From a virus, in the IMG/VR virus record IMGVR_UViG_3300032087_002150, positions 1-64,000 of that record: a DNA stretch of 64,000 bases, one strand, 5' to 3'. Position numbers and translations under genes: made by a program. Within the stretch, counting starts at the first letter, position 1, and every line of letters begins with the position of its first letter. Of this stretch, positions 12,251-29,758 are shown in pieces. Under the pieces are notes generated by a model. The model ran no database searches, was not told the DNA's origin, and was given only the letters and a program-made list of their open reading frames with translations.

Positions 12251-12697
12251 TTAGACGTTTTCCATTCTTGTCATTAAACGTTCCGCTCTATTAGTAACCT
12301 GACGATACCAAAGACTATCTCTACCTTCGACTGCTGCCTTCTTCCAATCATGGTCAGCGATCGCGGCATTAAAGTTCTTAAACTTACTTAGTCGCGTCCT
12401 TCCCATGTTGAACATCATATTAACCAAGATCTGCTGGACCTCATCGGGTAGGTCTCCAAAGTTCCCTTTTCCGTATAGGTGCTCACACTCTCCGATGGCG
12501 AGATCGAGGTCGTGCTCGAAACACTCCTTAACTCTTTCTTCCGAGATTCGAGTACCAATTGGTTGTCCGTGCTCTGGGTCACTTTCGAGGACAAGGTGAC
12601 CAACTCCAAACGTGGCGTAACCGAGGTGATCGTTGTAGATTTCATATTCTACTCCTTCGTCGATCTTAAGTTGCTCGTATACTGCTTCTCTGTTCAT
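12251..12697 (-). CDS. T4-type lysozyme (endolysin, GH24)
   Basis: DEG...YNDHLGYATFGVGHL, NMMFNMG, SLWYRQVTNRA. Confidence 0.92.
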   Translation of the reverse strand: MNREAVYEQLKIDEGVEYEIYNDHLGYATFGVGHLVLESDPEHGQPIGTRISEERVKECFEHDLDLAIGECEHLYGKGNFGDLPDEVQQILVNMMFNMGRTRLSKFKNFNAAIADHDWKKAAVEGRDSLWYRQVTNRAERLMTRMENV

Positions 12698-23694: not shown

Positions 23695-24051
23695 TCACCA
23701 TGCCTTACAAGACCAGTAACGTGCTTTCGTCTTTGGTCCTGGATTGTCGCAATTATGCCGAGCACGAAAAGACTTGCGGCGAGCAGGAATATTCTTTTTA
23801 ATCCGCATATTCTTATCACCGAAGTTTACCTTCTTGACGTTACCAGTCTTTGGATCTTTTACATATACTTTTGACTTGGCAACATCTCCTGGCATTGGTT
23901 TGTTCAGAGTTACTTTCCTTCCTTGGTACTCTGCTTCAGAAAATTGCTTAAACCTCAACATTTTCTTTTTACCCTCGTTTGGCGTCTTTTCCCTGGCATA
24001 TTTATCGGAGGCATTAGTTCCCCACTCATGTTTTTGCGGATTATATTTCAC
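23695..24051 (-). CDS. Conserved viral basic protein
   Basis: VKKVNFG...RRKSFRARHNC...ARYWSC motif shared by phages and NCLDV; GTG start. Confidence 0.7.
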   Translation of the reverse strand: MKYNPQKHEWGTNASDKYAREKTPNEGKKKMLRFKQFSEAEYQGRKVTLNKPMPGDVAKSKVYVKDPKTGNVKKVNFGDKNMRIKKNIPARRKSFRARHNCDNPGPKTKARYWSCKAW

Positions 24052-24284
24052 GCTAAATCCTGATCGTGGTTTAACTTAACACCTTTTTTCTTTTTAACTA
24101 TGAATGCGTTGACACGTGCCATGCCCCATTGAGATGGCGTAGTTCCTGGGCGGTGACCTGTTCTCCATGCGGCGACACCGCGATTGTAAACCTTTCGCAG
24201 CGTACCAACGGAAATGCCAGACTTGTCTGCTTTTTTAGCGAGACCCTTAGAGACGTCCTCTGCGATATAGTCCAAAAACTTCAT
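24048..24284 (-). CDS. C-terminal half of a DUF5824-like domain with capsid-targeting-like leader
   Basis: MKFLDYIAE; VYNRGVAAWRTGHRPG...WGMARV. Confidence 0.65.
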   Translation of the reverse strand: MKFLDYIAEDVSKGLAKKADKSGISVGTLRKVYNRGVAAWRTGHRPGTTPSQWGMARVNAFIVKKKKGVKLNHDQDLA

Positions 24285-24315: not shown

Positions 24316-24323
24316 TATTTATA
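24316..24323 (-). promoter_or_regulatory. T4-type late promoter
   Basis: TATAAATA 32 nt upstream of ATG 24284. Confidence 0.75.
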
Positions 24324-24343: not shown

Positions 24344-24673
24344 TTACTTTTTTCCGCTCCATGCTTGAGCGCCAAAGAATGCTGCAACTAAACCAGCGAC
24401 AGCGACGAAGTAGGTTGGTGCCATATCGCCGAGAACGTCTGATGCTTTTTCTAAACCAACCACATCAGTGCATATTACAAGGACTGGATAGAGTAACATA
24501 CCAGCGAGAGCAAACCAAGTCATACTACGCTGAGCATCACGCATCGCGTCTTGATCTTCAAGTTCCTTTCTCTTAAACTCCATATACATAGCATGTTCTT
24601 CTTCAGATACCTTACCATCACCATTGGTGTCCGCTGGGTGATAACCTGCTGCTTTTACTTCTTCTTCTGACAT
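24344..24673 (-). CDS. Two-TM membrane protein with EF-hand-like loop (holin-like)
   Basis: DTNGDGKVSEEE; two hydrophobic helices. Confidence 0.55.
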   Translation of the reverse strand: MSEEEVKAAGYHPADTNGDGKVSEEEHAMYMEFKRKELEDQDAMRDAQRSMTWFALAGMLLYPVLVICTDVVGLEKASDVLGDMAPTYFVAVAGLVAAFFGAQAWSGKK

Positions 24674-24682
24674 AACTTCCCC

Positions 24683-25162
24683 CTATGGATTGTTGAGTGG
24701 ATTGTCGAGAATGATCTGCATTTTTTCTTCGAGTTCTTTTCTCGTATCTCGCAGATCTTGATCGAGTGTTCTCATTCGTTCGTTAACACGAATCTCAATA
24801 GCATAAACATCATCGCGCAATTCACGTTGAGTAGTTGCAGTTTGATCGTCAACTCGACGAGCAAGTGCTTCCACTTTATCCATATCCTCAGTCATATCTT
24901 CTTTCAATAAATCAATTTTTGTTGAGAGAGCAGATAAACCAGAATTCAAAGATTCCATAGTTTCTTTTTGTACTGCTAACTCTTGTTCTATGTGCGACAG
25001 ATCAGGAGCAACATAACTCTCAATCTGTTCTTTCATATTACGGTAATCGTTATAAAACTCGAATGCACCCCATGCACCGCCACCGAGCGTTGAGAGCGCG
25101 GTAAGAATCACAACCATCTTACCGCCACGGAAAGTCATGCCAGCGAATTCAAATTCTGCCAT
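24683..25162 (-). CDS. TM-anchored coiled-coil protein
   Basis: One TM then ~110 aa heptad coil. Confidence 0.7.
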   Translation of the reverse strand: MAEFEFAGMTFRGGKMVVILTALSTLGGGAWGAFEFYNDYRNMKEQIESYVAPDLSHIEQELAVQKETMESLNSGLSALSTKIDLLKEDMTEDMDKVEALARRVDDQTATTQRELRDDVYAIEIRVNERMRTLDQDLRDTRKELEEKMQIILDNPLNNP

Positions 25163-25247
25163 CTTTCTTTGCCTTTTCTGCTATTTCCCTATCAGTTGTT
25201 CTGACAATGATATATCCCTTATCATCGTATACCGTATACCATCTCAT
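25149..25247 (-). CDS. 32-aa peptide (not in track)
   Basis: MRWYTVYDDKGYIIVRTTDREIAEK...; fills gap with ATGA overlap. Confidence 0.5.
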   Translation of the reverse strand: MRWYTVYDDKGYIIVRTTDREIAEKAKKDGRI

Positions 25248-25705
25248 ATGATACTCGCAAATCCTCCGATAACTACACCTACAAATACTAGAAACCCCAG
25301 TATTGCTATGCCGTCTATGATATTTGCTCTTTTGCGCGCTGCCTTTTCTGCTGCGGCAATTCTTCTTTGTCGAATGACACGACGCTCTTTCATCATATCG
25401 TCGTAAAACTGTTGTTGACCAGTATACAGCAAGTATTCGTATAGTTCTTTTTCGAGTTGCTTTATCTTGTGCCTTGCTGCGGTGACTTGTAGTGCCTGCG
25501 CTTCCACACTGTTGCCACCGAAAAGAGAACCCACCATCGATGGATTCTTTGCATGTTGATCTGCCTCTGCGAGTGCTTCTTTAGCATCAAAAAACTGAGC
25601 AAACTGTGCGTACATATCTTGTACTTCACGCCCTTGTTCGATTGCCCCTTTTAACATTTTAAAAGCAGAGCCTGCCATTGACAATGCTGCTGCTACTTCT
25701 ATCAT
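25244..25705 (-). CDS. Helical protein with C-terminal TM
   Basis: 153 aa, amphipathic N-terminus, C-terminal TM. Confidence 0.7.
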   Translation of the reverse strand: MIEVAAALSMAGSAFKMLKGAIEQGREVQDMYAQFAQFFDAKEALAEADQHAKNPSMVGSLFGGNSVEAQALQVTAARHKIKQLEKELYEYLLYTGQQQFYDDMMKERRVIRQRRIAAAEKAARKRANIIDGIAILGFLVFVGVVIGGFASII

Positions 25706-25706
25706 G

Positions 25707-26219
25707 TTATTCCTCTTTTGGCGGTCCTGCTACTAAACTTGGTGCCATTGGGTTCCCAGATCCTTCAAACTTTAACTGTCGCAGGTTTACTATCTCCTGC
25801 TGTAGTTTCATAACTTCTAATCGTTTCTTTTCCAATTCTAATTGATACAACGCATTACAATTTAATCTTTGCTTTGGTGCGCCAATCGGGATAGTAATCT
25901 TCCCGTACACACCAATATCTCGCAAGAACTCATTCGTATTATAACGGTTGTACATATATGGATCTTGAGAAGCAAGATTGTAGATTGGATCTTCTTGATT
26001 CAAAATACCAACTACACCAAACTCTACGTTTGTAGATGACCCGATTGCTGCTGAGCATTCGACGTCACCTGCCCTAACTCTGTCTGATTGGAAGGACTGA
26101 GGAGTTTGCGGTATCGCAATGTTTATTCCACTATTCTGCCCATAAGCAGCACCGCACCACAATCCGACCACAAAATAAACTGTTAACAATAATATTCTAT
26201 TCATAGTATTTTCGAACAT
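25707..26219 (-). CDS. Exported protein with Cys-flanked beta-hairpin and coiled coil
   Basis: Signal peptide; VECS..NVEFGVVG / IGVYGKITIPIG..LNC. Confidence 0.65.
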   Translation of the reverse strand: MFENTMNRILLLTVYFVVGLWCGAAYGQNSGINIAIPQTPQSFQSDRVRAGDVECSAAIGSSTNVEFGVVGILNQEDPIYNLASQDPYMYNRYNTNEFLRDIGVYGKITIPIGAPKQRLNCNALYQLELEKKRLEVMKLQQEIVNLRQLKFEGSGNPMAPSLVAGPPKEE

Positions 26220-26575
26220 ATCCGAGAAGATACAACAGTCTTGCTTATATCTCCTTGTAAAATCATTGACCGACTACAAATATAAACTGAACGAAGGTAG
26301 TCTGCCTCTTTTAAATAAATTACCACTTCTTTCTTTTTTAAATAATCTAACTGTATCGTTCTTTGTGCTGTAGCAAACGGTACAGATTTAAACTCCTCAT
26401 CAAACACTTCAAATGTATAATACGAGACATCCTCTCTCGAATTAAACAAGTACATCTTTGCTTGATATATCCCAGGAACAAATGAACCAGTTACCTTGGG
26501 ATATGTGGGCGTCCACTGGTGAGCATTAACTTGCGCGCACAGCAGACACCCGAGTATCATCATAACGAAGCGCAT
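26201..26575 (-). CDS. Single-domain PapD-like periplasmic chaperone
   Basis: Signal peptide; TPT...LFN...YTFEVFD...PF pattern; C-terminal Cys pair. Confidence 0.5.
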   Translation of the reverse strand: MRFVMMILGCLLCAQVNAHQWTPTYPKVTGSFVPGIYQAKMYLFNSREDVSYYTFEVFDEEFKSVPFATAQRTIQLDYLKKKEVVIYLKEADYLRSVYICSRSMILQGDISKTVVSSRICSKIL

Positions 26576-26578
26576 TGT

Positions 26579-27076
26579 TTATAGTGCTATACAATTCGCT
26601 TCAACGATAGCAGTGTAAGTACCGCCAGGAAGTGCCTTGTTAACACCATAGTCTGCTGTTGATGAAACAGCAAACCAAGTGCTACCAGTGAACTCAAGGT
26701 CGATCTCTGTGGTGCTATCATATGTGATTTTCGTTGTGTCATATGCTGACATCTGAGCATCAGAGACCGCATCTACAGCAGTAGATCCATTCCATGTTAC
26801 AGTGTCATTCAACGCAGGACTCTGAGAGAAAGACGATGGATGCGTGATAACCGCCTTGTATGAATCAGCGATAACTACATCGTATCGAATCACTGGAGCA
26901 ACTCCACCGTCAACAGCATCAGTGCTTAATTCACTAGATGTTGGGTTTCCATAGACACCCTGTTTGTCGAGAGTTACAACACACTTTGACTCTACATTAC
27001 CTACAATTGGTGCATCAAGAGCGAATGCATTCACCGAAATAAACGCAATCGAAGCAGCCAAAATTTTCTTGAACAT
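26579..27076 (-). CDS. Fimbrial subunit-like exported protein
   Basis: Signal peptide ending AFA; GNVESKC; all-beta, S/T/D-rich; ends LPGGTYTAIVEANC. Confidence 0.55.
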   Translation of the reverse strand: MFKKILAASIAFISVNAFALDAPIVGNVESKCVVTLDKQGVYGNPTSSELSTDAVDGGVAPVIRYDVVIADSYKAVITHPSSFSQSPALNDTVTWNGSTAVDAVSDAQMSAYDTTKITYDSTTEIDLEFTGSTWFAVSSTADYGVNKALPGGTYTAIVEANCIAL

Positions 27077-27966
27077 TACTGTTCTCCTTTGTATTGAGAT
27101 TTTACTAATTTTTCATGAAGTAAGTCTTGCGCAAACTGTAATCTACGACCCCGATTATTCCTCGGGAGTCTAGAATCCTTTAGGACTACCGTGTCCTCTA
27201 TTTTCGTATCAGGCAGAGTTGTGAAATATATTGAAGAAAAAGTATTTAATGCCATCATCTGCTGTTGTTTAGCAGTGTCCTCGGCATTTTGTAGTGACCT
27301 GTTAACTATACCCAAAATATTTTCTAGGTCAACTTCCTCTTCATCTTCTTCTTTTTCTTCCGCGACTCTTAATCTTTCTTGTTCTTCTTCGTCATCCTCG
27401 TCGCGCATAGTCATCTCACGATCGAGTTCGTTTTGTATTACGTCGTCAGCGAGTGGATCAACTGGTTCGACGTTTGGTATGTCTGGCACTTCAGGTTTAT
27501 ATCCTGGGCACTCTGGATCGGATTGTGGGTCGAAGCAAGTGTCATACTGATACGTGTATGCTACAAATGGTTCAACAACTTCACCTTTCCCTTCCCATTC
27601 AATACTACCGTCGCCCCAACGTTCGATTGGAACCTGACCGACTCGTATAACCTTATTTATAGTATTTCCTGGAATACCTGTCCAGTCATCCTTTTCACGA
27701 AAAATGTACTGCCCTTCGTTTTGTGCGTCTTCATTCTGCACATAAACTACCATGGCATCTTGTTCGTTTTTGATAGTCGTGTAACTATAAATCACATTAC
27801 TAACAGTCAACCCTGTCGCCTGAGGCAACACATTGGACATAACCCAATTAAGACCAGCATCCGCTGCATTGGTTGTTGTACCAAATACTTGCTCAGAGTA
27901 GGAGTAAGAGTGCCAACAACCCAGCAACACCGCCACTAGCAGCTGCTGTGCTCTTTGTAGTCTCAT
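27076..27966 (-). CDS. Exported protein: beta domain, CxxPxxDPxCPG motif, acidic stalk
   Basis: Signal peptide, CFDPQSDPECPGY, E-rich region. Confidence 0.65.
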   Translation of the reverse strand: MRLQRAQQLLVAVLLGCWHSYSYSEQVFGTTTNAADAGLNWVMSNVLPQATGLTVSNVIYSYTTIKNEQDAMVVYVQNEDAQNEGQYIFREKDDWTGIPGNTINKVIRVGQVPIERWGDGSIEWEGKGEVVEPFVAYTYQYDTCFDPQSDPECPGYKPEVPDIPNVEPVDPLADDVIQNELDREMTMRDEDDEEEQERLRVAEEKEEDEEEVDLENILGIVNRSLQNAEDTAKQQQMMALNTFSSIYFTTLPDTKIEDTVVLKDSRLPRNNRGRRLQFAQDLLHEKLVKSQYKGEQ

Positions 27967-28495
27967 CTAATCCTTCCTTCGGGACTTCTGGTTGATTTTC
28001 CATCTCACCTGACGCCAACCATGCTGCCTTTGCCTCATCGCCGATTAATCCGTCATATGGGCATGGCGTTCCTGCGTTCATCATCGCCGTAAACACTCGC
28101 TCGTCTTGACACATCATAGAAACAGCAGCGACCTTCATACCCATGTCGTACAAAGTCTTTGCGTTCTTGAGTCGTTCACAGTTTTCGTCTGTAAACTGCG
28201 TACCAGTAGAGATACCAAGGATTTGAGTTTGAACAGCACCAGCAACTCCGAAAGTACAGAGGTCAGAGTTTGATGTGTTAATGGTTGGTGTAATCGCCGA
28301 TGCAGGTGGCGATTTTATTGTTGTGGTGGTAGCACCATTCGTTGTGATTGTACTGTTGACTTCCGACTTAGTTTCTACCAAATTGGGGTTAACAGCATCT
28401 TCCTGCGCATATAATGCGGGAGCAATGGAGAATGCAAAAATAATAATGCATCCAATCAGCACAATCTTTATAAGACTCGAGTCTAACTTATCCAT
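27893..28495 (-). CDS. Exported Cys-rich protein with Gly-rich beta-hairpin and C-terminal TM anchor
   Basis: Signal peptide; DLC..GVAGAVQTQILGISTG..DENCERLK..MC..TPCP; SGGVAGLLALLLLL. Confidence 0.7.
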   Translation of the reverse strand: MDKLDSSLIKIVLIGCIIIFAFSIAPALYAQEDAVNPNLVETKSEVNSTITTNGATTTTIKSPPASAITPTINTSNSDLCTFGVAGAVQTQILGISTGTQFTDENCERLKNAKTLYDMGMKVAAVSMMCQDERVFTAMMNAGTPCPYDGLIGDEAKAAWLASGEMENQPEVPKEGLDETTKSTAAASGGVAGLLALLLLL

Positions 28496-28500
28496 CGTAC

Positions 28501-28571
28501 AATTCCTAATGTAATGAATCTAACAAATCAAATCAGATTTGCATTTTATTATTCAATATTACAAAGGAATT
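28501..28571 (-). promoter_or_regulatory. Long AU-rich 5'-UTR hairpin occluding the RBS
   Basis: AATTCCT/AGGAATT, TGTAAT/ATTACA, GAAT/ATTC, CAAATC/GATTTG nested pairs; ACTAAATA at 28615-28622. Confidence 0.65.
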
Positions 28572-28621
28572 AAAAAGTTAACACCCAGATCAAAACATGC
28601 TATGTACCGAAAGGTATTTAG

Positions 28622-29758
28622 TCAATCCTTTCCGTACATCTTAGAAAATGCTTTTGTGTACTTAGATGGTTTAGTTTTTGCGGTTGCATCACCAGGAGCT
28701 TTCTTATATGCTGCTGGATTGTTGTCGTCCATATCTTGCCCTTTCTTAAAATGGGCATCGCGACGTTTCTTGATTGCTTTTGATAGACCCTTGTGGTATG
28801 CCTTTGGTTGAGAACCTTCACGGTCTTTGATGTCTGGATCTTGTGCTGCTTTATACTTCTTATCTTTTTCTGCTTTCAGAGTTGCGTATCTTTTCCCGCC
28901 AGTAGGCGAAGGAATAAACTCTGCACTAGAAACATACTCATCTAACTTTTCAATGGCATCTAACCATTTACGCACAACCTTATCTTCGCTCAGTTGAACG
29001 ATAACATAGTTGCTGCCCAGATGGGTAATAGTACCGACCTCTTCAGATTCTTTTACAACAACCTGATCGCCGACTTCGAACAACTCTCCTTTTACAAACT
29101 TCTCGCGAGTCTCTGATACAGGATCAAGTTCTACGTGACGTTTGAATACAGTTTCTTCTTTGATTCCCATACCGTTGCGCACATCAACGAACAACTTCTT
29201 CGCGTCCTTGTTACTCATAGATCCGAGACCTTGTGAGAAACTTGCGAAGTCATTATCTGCTGCGAACGCACGGAGTTTAGAAGCAGACATACCCTCTACA
29301 CCTTCGGCATCAGGGTCGCGTGCTCCAGCAGAAACTACTTGGATGTTCTTGAAGTTATAAAAACCGTGACGTCCTTTCTCGCCGTTGTACTTGTCGAGCA
29401 ATGTTTTAAACTCTCTTACACGGTCAGAACCTACGACCATGACCAAGTTCTTAAAACCTTGCTCATACAGATATGATGCTGCATCAAAGGCAGTACGAAT
29501 CTTCTTGTTGATTAGAACACGTCGTGCGTGACGAGGAAACATCTTACGAACATGTTTTACCTTCGAACCATAGTCGAGAGGATTTTTCTTGGCATCTTGT
29601 GACTGCGACAAGAAAACGAAATAAGGGTTCTTGCCTGCATTTTTTGCGAGCATGTCCAACAACTTCTGATGCCCAGAAGTTGGGGGGTTCATACGACCGA
29701 AGGTAAAGTAAGCGACCTTTGCTTCTTCTACCAGATAGTCATTGAACGACTTTATCAT
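28622..29758 (-). CDS. HIGH-superfamily nucleotidyltransferase (cytidylyltransferase/NMNAT-like) with SH3-like domain and basic tail
   Basis: FGRMNPPTSGH, VVGSDR, MSASKLR; leader MIKSFNDYLVEE. Confidence 0.85.
   Translation of the reverse strand: MIKSFNDYLVEEAKVAYFTFGRMNPPTSGHQKLLDMLAKNAGKNPYFVFLSQSQDAKKNPLDYGSKVKHVRKMFPRHARRVLINKKIRTAFDAASYLYEQGFKNLVMVVGSDRVREFKTLLDKYNGEKGRHGFYNFKNIQVVSAGARDPDAEGVEGMSASKLRAFAADNDFASFSQGLGSMSNKDAKKLFVDVRNGMGIKEETVFKRHVELDPVSETREKFVKGELFEVGDQVVVKESEEVGTITHLGSNYVIVQLSEDKVVRKWLDAIEKLDEYVSSAEFIPSPTGGKRYATLKAEKDKKYKAAQDPDIKDREGSQPKAYHKGLSKAIKKRRDAHFKKGQDMDDNNPAAYKKAPGDATAKTKPSKYTKAFSKMYGKD

Follow-up and report, generated by a model that had tools for sequence, protein, structure and literature searches.

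What does a lytic phage build in the envelope of its host from a row of small exported proteins, two of which resemble the chaperone and the subunit of a bacterial pilus? The question is raised by a cassette of minus-strand genes at positions 24344-28495 of a 64-kb stretch of phage DNA (hereafter the window), the first part of the 151,660-base IMG/VR virus record IMGVR_UViG_3300032087_002150 (84% complete). An earlier note on this DNA had proposed an usher-less, fimbria-like assembly system. Our best explanation, which we hold tentatively and stop short of calling probable, is a late operon for an envelope-bound assembly that uses capping of the chaperone-usher kind and ends on small phage proteins, not on an usher.

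The record exhibits genes for a UvsX-like recombinase, a DnaB/gp41-type helicase and NrdA/NrdB, and a short stretch of it is similar to the Kyanoviridae phages HTVC008M and Melnitz. On this gene content and similarity, the source phage is identified as an uncultured marine T4-like myophage. At least seven studies have yielded seawater metagenomes or viromes with DNA near-identical to the cassette stretch; the sequence is therefore real and recurrent.

A conserved cassette of exported proteins

The interval 24344-28495 is filled by eight open reading frames (ORFs), named here by their length: g200, g296, g165, g124, g170, g153, g159 and g109, all on the minus strand. Overlaps of 74 nt (g200/g296) and 1 nt (g296/g165), a gap of 3 nt (g165/g124), an ATGA overlap (g124/g170) and gaps of 1 nt (g170/g153), 81 nt (g153/g159) and 9 nt (g159/g109) join them. 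The earlier note had spoken of nine coupled genes; the tight packing stands and the count does not. For g170 the listed start, at 26219, lies too far upstream: six relatives exhibit a stop codon within the extension, and the start was therefore set to 26204.

Five consecutive products (g200, g296, g165, g124 and g170) begin like proteins with signal peptides, in that a basic residue precedes a hydrophobic stretch and a small-x-small site. All five carry cysteines that are invariant among the aligned relatives: C80/C106/C129/C145 in g200, C144/C153 in g296, C32/C162 in g165, C100/C120 in g124 and C50/C116 in g170. Three membrane proteins, recognized by their hydrophobic segments, come after them (g153, g159 and g109). 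Both features had been read from the sequence in the earlier note and are borne out here, the cysteines by their invariance. No conserved lipobox was found in the eight cassette products.

The individual layouts are as follows. In g200 (27893-28495, 200 aa), the signal peptide is followed by a Thr/Ser-rich linker, a 4-Cys domain (residues ~60-160), an acidic linker and a hydrophobic tail (GG..LLALLLLL). The largest product, g296 (27076-27966; 296 aa, or 286 aa according to the gene caller), has a signal peptide and a beta-rich N-domain with the C144/C153 loop; a very acidic linker then leads to a C-terminal region that is basic and conserved. The earlier note had suggested that this product could be an adhesin or stalk. 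The next two genes encode an Ig (immunoglobulin)-like beta-sandwich (g165; 26579-27076, 165 aa, mature 146 aa) and a single PapD/MSP-type Ig domain (g124; 26201-26575, 124 aa, mature 106 aa). g170 (25707-26204, 165 aa from the corrected start) has a signal peptide and, in the mature protein, two Gly-rich amphipathic stretches bracketed by the invariant Cys pair and followed by a short, coiled-coil-like C-terminal helix. The motifs that the earlier note had quoted for the genes at 25707 (g170) and 27893 (g200) are present, with Cys flanking Gly-rich hydrophobic stretches; on this layout g170 is a candidate outer-membrane-proximal component. g153 (25244-25705, 153 aa) consists of a cytoplasmic helical N-terminal part and a hydrophobic C-terminal membrane anchor (residues 127-153). 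g159 (24683-25162, 159 aa) has a Gly/Ala-rich N-terminal membrane anchor, a coiled-coil-like periplasmic part and a DNPL motif at the C-terminus. g109 (24344-24673, 109 aa) has a weak EF-hand-like N-terminus and two membrane segments.

The block g200-g296-g165-g124-g170-(g153)-g159 was found again in 31 IMG/VR loci, at 36-96% protein identity. Many of these are flanked by quite different genes (2-oxoglutarate (2OG) oxygenase, PhoH, exonucleases), and at one locus (L003) the neighbours of the cassette lie on the opposite strand. g153 appears to be an accessory gene that the diverged cassettes L030-L033 and L035 lack, and g109 a loosely attached passenger, being variable in position among the relatives or missing. 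The diverged contig L035 keeps the six core genes in a new order: g200, g296, a 51-aa ORF, g159, g165, g124 and g170. Co-conservation, for which the earlier note had suggested a neighbourhood search, is thus seen both in the retention of the block between differing flanks and in its reordering. We conclude firmly that selection keeps these exported proteins together as a set.

Metagenomic relatives, counted as clusters at 90% identity, number 982 for g165, 640 for g296 and 1,776 for g124, with no Pfam domain or name among them. The search for relatives of g124 was set to lengths of 67-233 aa, and all 1,776 fall in this range; those listed have 118-138 aa. When 185,579 species genomes of bacteria and archaea were scanned with a g170 pattern, one match was obtained, on a 4.3-kb contig of a metagenome-assembled genome, which is probably binned phage DNA. 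Within the limits of such a pattern-based scan, the result fits a phage-borne family. One metatranscriptome library contains contigs of a relative of 90-95% similarity over g124, g165, g296 and g200; contigs in an RNA library are no proof of transcription, and show neither strand nor timing.

Searches of Pfam, PHROGs, NCBIfam and PADLOC returned no informative family for the eight products, only unnamed PHROGs and coiled-coil noise, and no structural PHROG category was matched. g200 matches phrog_20531 (E-value = 3.8e-17). Profile searches against PDB sequences with g165, g124, g296, g170 and g200 gave nothing below an E-value of 0.2, and an ESM Atlas search with g170 gave unnamed viral clusters only. 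No account of a cassette of this kind was found in searches of the literature.

A PapD-type domain and its predicted Ig-fold partner

The AlphaFold2 model of mature g124 (pLDDT 89.6) is a single Ig-like domain. Its top-ranking Foldseek matches are the chaperones of chaperone-usher systems Caf1M, DraB, PapD, CsuC, FaeE and FimC (E-value 4.5e-4 to 5e-3, TMq 0.55-0.73). An independent all-against-all search (VIA) gave Z = 10.7 for SafB and FimC (97-98 of 106 residues, rmsd 2.5-2.7), followed by YadV (10.0), PapD (9.8), FaeE (9.7), CfaA (9.4) and CsuC (9.0); eukaryotic MSP domains scored 9.1-9.7. These values exceed the Z of 7-8 that unmatched models typically reach. It is well supported by the model, therefore, that g124 has a PapD/MSP-type Ig fold resembling the first domain of chaperone-usher chaperones. 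The earlier note had seen in the gene at 26201 one PapD-type Ig domain with a C-terminal Cys pair (C100/C120), and this holds on both structural searches. The conserved C-terminal strand SSRICSK is the predicted donor strand. The first mature residue of g124 is an invariant histidine. A His-brace copper site, as in CopC and the lytic polysaccharide monooxygenases, was considered for it and rejected: there is no second invariant histidine, and the homologues in Vibrio phages begin with leucine.

The model of mature g165 (pLDDT 93.5) is an Ig-like sandwich, with the first 12 residues outside the strands. Its first strand contains the motif IVGNVESKC and its last strand PGGTYTAIVEANC, an invariant Cys is present in both strands, and the free N-terminal stretch LDAPIVGNVESK is conserved. 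Several chaperone-usher pilins are among its Foldseek matches (E-value 4e-3 to 2e-2, TM 0.38-0.46, probability 0.9-1.0). The best VIA matches are domains of staphylococcal MSCRAMM adhesins (Z 7.1-7.4, SdrD 7.4); the CanA cannula subunits score 6.0-6.2 over 123-124 of 146 residues, and the pilin domain of PapG 5.2. An ESM feature comparison gave a lead with a score of 0.94 and 173 shared features, to a cluster with SCPU in 15% of its members. A search of BFVD gave nothing below an E-value of 2e-3 and nothing usefully named, and no fimbrial or SCPU model of Pfam or NCBIfam hit g165 or its most distant relatives. Of the chaperone-usher pilin that the earlier note had placed at 26579, the quoted motifs are present; the modelled fold is an Ig-like sandwich, pilins are not its best matches, and no pilin Pfam model matches. 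On its model, g165 would broadly resemble an adhesin or a pilin; that it belongs to the chaperone-usher pilins is not established. A second pilin- or chaperone-like protein was sought in g296 and rejected (hhalign probability ~1% against g165 and g124).

A complex of g165 and g124 passes prediction with a score of 0.70 (runs 0.72, 0.70 and 0.65), the best of three controls reaching 0.00. The mark applied is reached by 58 of 80 solved complexes and by 2 of 110 mismatched pairs. At least 98% of the contacts are common to the runs, and the pLDDT of the partners is at least 88. Residues 97-104 of g124 (VSSRICSK) contact residues 138-146 of g165 (IVEANCIAL) at a constant offset of 42, and the strands are therefore parallel; the same g124 residues contact residues 13-15 of g165 in the opposite direction. 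The near-invariant K104 of g124 contacts g165 residue 145, one before the C-terminus, and the near-invariant R100 is on the same strand. Residues 1-9 of g165 are outside the predicted interface. In both families, conservation is highest in the strands of the interface.

In the PapD-PapK, FimC-FimH and Caf1M-Caf1 complexes, the last strand of the first chaperone domain runs parallel to the last strand of the subunit, a basic residue holds the C-terminal carboxylate of the subunit (the anchoring pair being Arg8/Lys112 in PapD), and the N-terminal extension is free. In the direction of its strands and its free N-terminal stretch, the predicted docking of g124 on g165 has this geometry of donor-strand complementation, with K104 and R100 as candidates for the basic anchor. 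The pilin-chaperone pairing that the earlier note had wished to see modelled is thereby obtained, as a predicted structure that the controls do not reproduce.

The usher itself is missing. The earlier note had stated that no usher of ~800 aa is present in the window, and this can be extended to the whole record (84% complete), where PF00577 gave no match at an E-value of up to 1. At the same threshold, PF00345 (PapD_N) hit neither g124 nor any of the six frames of the whole record.

Two modules in other phages

On sequence comparison, the cassette is a composite of two modules, a new finding: module A (g200, g296 and g159) and module B, the trio g165, g124 and g170. The gene order of contig L035 looks like the two modules placed end to end. 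A tblastn search with g165 gave no match in GenBank phage records, and one with g170 gave weak matches in 29 Vibrio phage records; the homologues of the trio in Vibrio phages were reached only through these g170 matches and then by profiles. In the Vibrio phages Bennett (T5-like) and PS14A.1 (a siphovirus), homologues of g165 (E-value = 6e-9) and g170 (E-value = 1e-10 and 1e-9) lie side by side. A g124 homologue was found by profile in Bennett only (E-value = 1e-6). The KVP40-like 1.081.O has a g170 homologue (E-value = 1.4e-8), the flanking genes of which are g124-like and g165-like by eye only. No g200, g296 or g159 was found near the trio in these Vibrio phages. In Bennett, two large genes are followed by the trio, an overlapping small lipoprotein gene, a holin and an M15 endolysin. 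The lipoprotein, gp151 (L038:4242-4445), is a 67-aa ORF with the lipobox LIISGC. Read in a different frame, it shares its sequence with the 3' end of the g170-like gene, and ~400 nt separate it from the holin and endolysin genes that follow, an arrangement reminiscent of spanin genes that overlap.

Module A has its own distribution. The g200 domain (phrog_20531) occurs in 16 phage records lacking the trio, among them SAR11 podoviruses, roseobacter phages and the N4-like JWAlpha and RSP15. In SAR11 phages it belongs to a set of three genes, encoding a g200-like secreted 4-Cys protein, an acidic protein that is also secreted (430-610 aa) and a small protein made of an anchor and a coil. The set is carried by the pelagiphages HTVC023P, HTVC115P, Baldr, Mosig (a myophage) and HTVC202P, which are of differing morphotypes; it lies directly before the M15 endolysin in HTVC023P and before the terminase in Baldr and HTVC202P. 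We regard it as a candidate for an unrecognized envelope or lysis module. gp49 of the podovirus HTVC115P is a clear g159 homologue (E-value = 3.5e-35). The large acidic proteins of pelagiphages are related among themselves. Homology of g296 to them was rejected, the E-values being above 0.6 and the architecture alone alike.

The Roseobacter phage CRP-810 exhibits another g159 homologue (gp51, L043:3719-4141, E-value = 5e-8) ~630 nt, or one gene, downstream of a g200-like gene. It is annotated as "lysozyme". No lysozyme family matches gp51, and the annotation is probably wrong, or a guess at a lysis gene. The "OmpA family" label of gp53 in the same phage is not borne out by Pfam. As to g109, homologues of 68-73% identity lie in HTVC008M and Melnitz between putative tape-measure and baseplate-hub assembly genes, far from any exported-protein cassette.

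How the cassette may work

We propose that the late operon would supply the envelope of the infected cell with six to eight proteins. Once both had been exported by Sec and had formed their disulfides, g124 would cap g165 like the periplasmic half of the chaperone-usher pathway: its last strand, TVVSSRICSK, would insert between the first and last strands of g165, parallel to the last, in donor-strand complementation, while the conserved N-terminal stretch of g165 would remain free. The capped pair might then be handed to g170, a putative hairpin and coiled-coil protein that would probably lie at the outer membrane, and also to module A (g200, g296 and g159), which would be anchored in the inner membrane. 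The most likely job would be a breaching or remodelling of the outer layers at the end of infection, or the covering of receptors; a classical long pilus appears less likely than such an end-of-infection function.

Several observations weigh against this proposal. g124 has no second chaperone domain, being one domain of 106 residues, and no PapD Pfam model matches it. g165 is closer to MSCRAMM domains (7.4) than to pilins (5.2), with all its Z values in the noise band. The invariant cysteines of g165 link the ends of just those two strands between which the donor strand would lie, and may leave no true groove for it. Chaperone-subunit complexes are in the training data of the predictor, so that the pass of the g165-g124 pair may reflect likeness only. 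Metabolic genes, not lysis genes, adjoin the cassette here and in most T4-like relatives, and the late promoter motif upstream of g200 is imperfect in this window.

Three alternatives differ from each other mainly in the final product and its purpose. The first, which we consider unlikely, is the usher-less fimbria of the earlier note: g165 would polymerize, the g124 strand being exchanged for the N-terminal stretch of the next subunit, and the fibre would leave through a ring of g170 (and/or g200) hairpins, a CsgG-like channel in place of the usher, to aggregate cells, deter grazers or block superinfection. The donor-strand docking geometry is consistent with this, together with a free and conserved N-terminus (P-I-x-G-x-V-x-S-K) of alternating small and hydrophobic residues. 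So are the chaperone-usher pilins among the Foldseek hits of g165, the alignment of g165 with CanA, whose subunits form self-assembling donor-strand fibres, and the amphipathic Gly-rich stretches of g170, closed by a Cys pair ahead of the coiled coil. The g170 homologue of PS14A.1 may also carry a lipobox (VLAAC), and the partial fibre-secretion genes CsgG/CsgF of pelagimyophages and Melnitz (PMC9004378) offer a precedent. However, there is a single subunit type, whose fold matches to pilins are weak; g170 gave no structural or family lead; and a pore of 140-residue subunits passing folded Ig domains is without precedent.

An alternative of comparable standing, likewise improbable in our view, is a new kind of spanin-like lysis device, in which g159, with its inner-membrane anchor and periplasmic coiled coil, would meet g170, g200 and g296 and destroy the outer membrane after endolysin action, the Ig-fold pair being padding or a regulator. 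g159 has the layout of an i-spanin; family searches with it gave only coiled-coil noise, and PF03245 did not match. In the whole record, neither Rz (PF03245) nor the T4 holin (PF11031) was matched, which alone does not show a phage without spanin or holin; the outer-membrane lysis step is thus unassigned. The three-gene set with its g200-like gene lies directly before an M15 endolysin in the podovirus HTVC023P, the trio precedes a small lipoprotein, a holin and an endolysin in Bennett, the g159 homologue of CRP-810 goes by the name "lysozyme" close to a g200-like gene, and late promoter boxes are present upstream in relatives. It is because of these lysis contexts in other phages and of the missing recognizable spanin that this explanation is kept alive. 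On the other side, the cassette of the window encodes no lipobox protein and its phage lysozyme gene is 12 kb off (12251-12697); the flanks in T4-like relatives are 2OG oxygenase, PhoH and exonuclease genes; module A adjoins the terminase gene, not lysis genes, in Baldr and HTVC202P; and six to eight proteins including a chaperone-like pair exceed the needs of any known spanin.

A variant that separates the two modules strikes us as rather more doubtful. Here the trio would be a minimal, self-contained donor-strand secretion system that phages invented or kept, for fibres or a coat on dying cells: a half-size PapD-like chaperone would pass the Ig-fold subunit to a small oligomeric g170 pore of a new kind, replacing the usher, and module A would be an unrecognized envelope-breaching set of SAR11-type phages.

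Quite improbable, in our estimate, is superinfection exclusion or receptor masking, by which the exported proteins would coat or plug host receptors like T5 Llp or Cor, so that infected cells and debris stop adsorbing phages. All products are directed to the envelope, the cassette moves as accessory modules between unrelated phage lineages, and in Bennett and PS14A.1 the trio follows two genes of ~820 aa that may encode tail or receptor-binding proteins. Yet these neighbours gave no family match, the cassette products show no similarity to a known exclusion protein or PADLOC model, and the known receptor blockers are single small lipoproteins.

That the products are ordinary virion or assembly proteins, with hydrophobic N-termini that are not signal peptides, is scarcely credible: the late promoter is typical of structural genes, and HTVC008M and Melnitz have their g109 homologues among baseplate genes, but five products in a row have canonical signal peptides whose cleavage motifs are conserved, their Cys pairs are invariant, g124 has the fold of a periplasmic chaperone, and no structural PHROG category was matched.

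Late promoters and flanking genes

The timing in our preferred explanation, the late envelope-bound operon, is taken from promoter motifs. In the leader region of the operon (28496-28622, minus strand), the site ACTAAATA is found ~125 nt upstream of the g200 start, and sites of this type are present ~129-131 nt upstream in close relatives. In most relatives the late promoter box of the T4 type, TATAAATA, is perfect and stands 76-91 nt upstream of g200. Late expression of the cassette is inferred from this motif. Another TATAAATA box (24316-24323, minus strand) directly follows the stop codon of g109. The next late unit begins with this box, which therefore marks the 3' border of the cassette. 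The window contains seven perfect TATAAATA boxes, all on the minus strand, against 2.1 expected, and one of the seven lies within g296 (27654-27661, minus strand), a possible internal late promoter for the trio. A leader hairpin (28485-28612, minus strand), in which AAUUCCU pairs with AGGAAUU before the g200 start codon, was considered and dropped, its energy being ordinary (-24.3 kcal/mol, z = -1.31; 22 of 200 shuffles fold equally well).

Just downstream of the cassette, a 78-aa gene (24048-24284, minus strand) matches DUF5824 over its C-terminal half (positions 64-126 of the 127 in the profile, E-value = 4e-19). Just upstream, the C-terminus of a 378-aa cytidylyltransferase-like gene (28622-29758, minus strand) weakly matches the N-terminal half of DUF5824 (positions 1-53, E-value = 0.003). 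Two halves of one domain family thus flank the cassette. In a relative that has the cassette elsewhere (G001), the halves are still ~0.8 kb apart, for which reason a simple insertion is not shown.

Comparison with known systems

Compared with spanins (lambda Rz/Rz1, T4 PseT.3/PseT.2), the cassette is likewise envelope-directed and probably late, and g159 combines an N-terminal anchor with a periplasmic coiled-coil-like part. As in lysis cassettes, parts of it adjoin endolysin or holin genes in HTVC023P and Bennett; in CRP-810 the "lysozyme" is the g159 homologue itself, so that there is no separate lysis neighbour. Unlike spanins, the cassette has no outer-membrane lipoprotein partner, the gene after g159 encoding the two-segment membrane protein g109. 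It has no PF03245 match, is not beside the lysozyme gene, and has many more components, Ig-fold proteins included.

T5 Llp and Cor of T1, phi80 and N15 are phage envelope lipoproteins that protect infected cells or progeny, and the llp and cor genes of T5-like and T1-like phages lie after tail or receptor-binding genes. The trio of Bennett and PS14A.1 similarly follows large genes, possibly for tail or receptor-binding proteins. Llp and Cor are single small lipoproteins, in contrast, with no fold or sequence in common with the cassette.

Usher-less donor-strand fibres, such as TasA of Bacillus, the archaeal bundling pili and CanA, are built from subunits of ~150 residues that are exported by Sec, have an Ig-like or jelly-roll fold and carry a donor strand at the N-terminus. 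g165 would be similar; the CanA alignment covers 123-124 of its 146 residues, at Z values (6.0-6.2) that belong to the noise band. A PapD-like partner is absent from those systems.

The closest parallel in the literature comes from related marine T4-like phages. Pelagimyophages and the Methylophilales phage Melnitz carry the partial curli secretion genes CsgG/CsgF, and their hosts lack that pathway (PMC7029224, PMC9004378); lysis timing or "sibling capture" was proposed as their role by the authors (PMC9004378). Like these genes, the cassette would be a fragment of a bacterial surface-fibre pathway in a phage. The curli set is a recognizable pore without a fibre subunit, whereas the cassette has chaperone-like and subunit-like parts without a pore. 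The two have no sequence relation, and no CsgG, CsgF or CsgE model of Pfam or NCBIfam hit the cassette products.

Chaperone-usher assembly is regarded as a bacterial pathway of three fixed parts. With its chaperone-subunit pairs (PapD-PapK, FimC-FimA, Caf1M-Caf1, SafB-SafA, CsuC-CsuA/B), g124 and g165 share Sec export of both partners, disulfides and adjacent genes, and g124 has the fold of the first chaperone domain (Z 9.0-10.7). In the predicted model, moreover, the last strand of g124 runs parallel to that of g165 and beside its first strand, a near-invariant lysine of g124 lies by the g165 C-terminus, and the N-terminal stretch of g165 is free. The differences are as marked. g124 is one domain of 106 residues against the two domains, ~200-220 (to 230) residues, of the chaperones. 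Neither protein belongs to a Pfam family, no usher is matched in the record, and there is a single subunit type, whose closest folds are not pilins and whose N-to-C disulfide is without counterpart in pilins. The carrier is a lytic phage, with four to six further proteins of unknown family in the block.

What seems to survive of the chaperone-usher pathway is only its periplasmic logic, a PapD-type domain capping an Ig-fold subunit by a donated strand. If the predicted model is right, what is new is chaperone-subunit capping without an usher and with a half-size chaperone, in lytic phages. The remaining cassette proteins belong to no known family, and the whole system could be something new. 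Its families are very abundant in seawater (hundreds to ~1,800 clusters at 90% identity) and are unnamed in any library. The cassette would amount either to a new small way through the outer membrane or to a new late envelope function, for example the missing outer-membrane lysis step of marine phages that have no recognizable spanin. The presence of the trio in the cultured Vibrio phages Bennett, PS14A.1 and 1.081.O makes a bench study possible at once.

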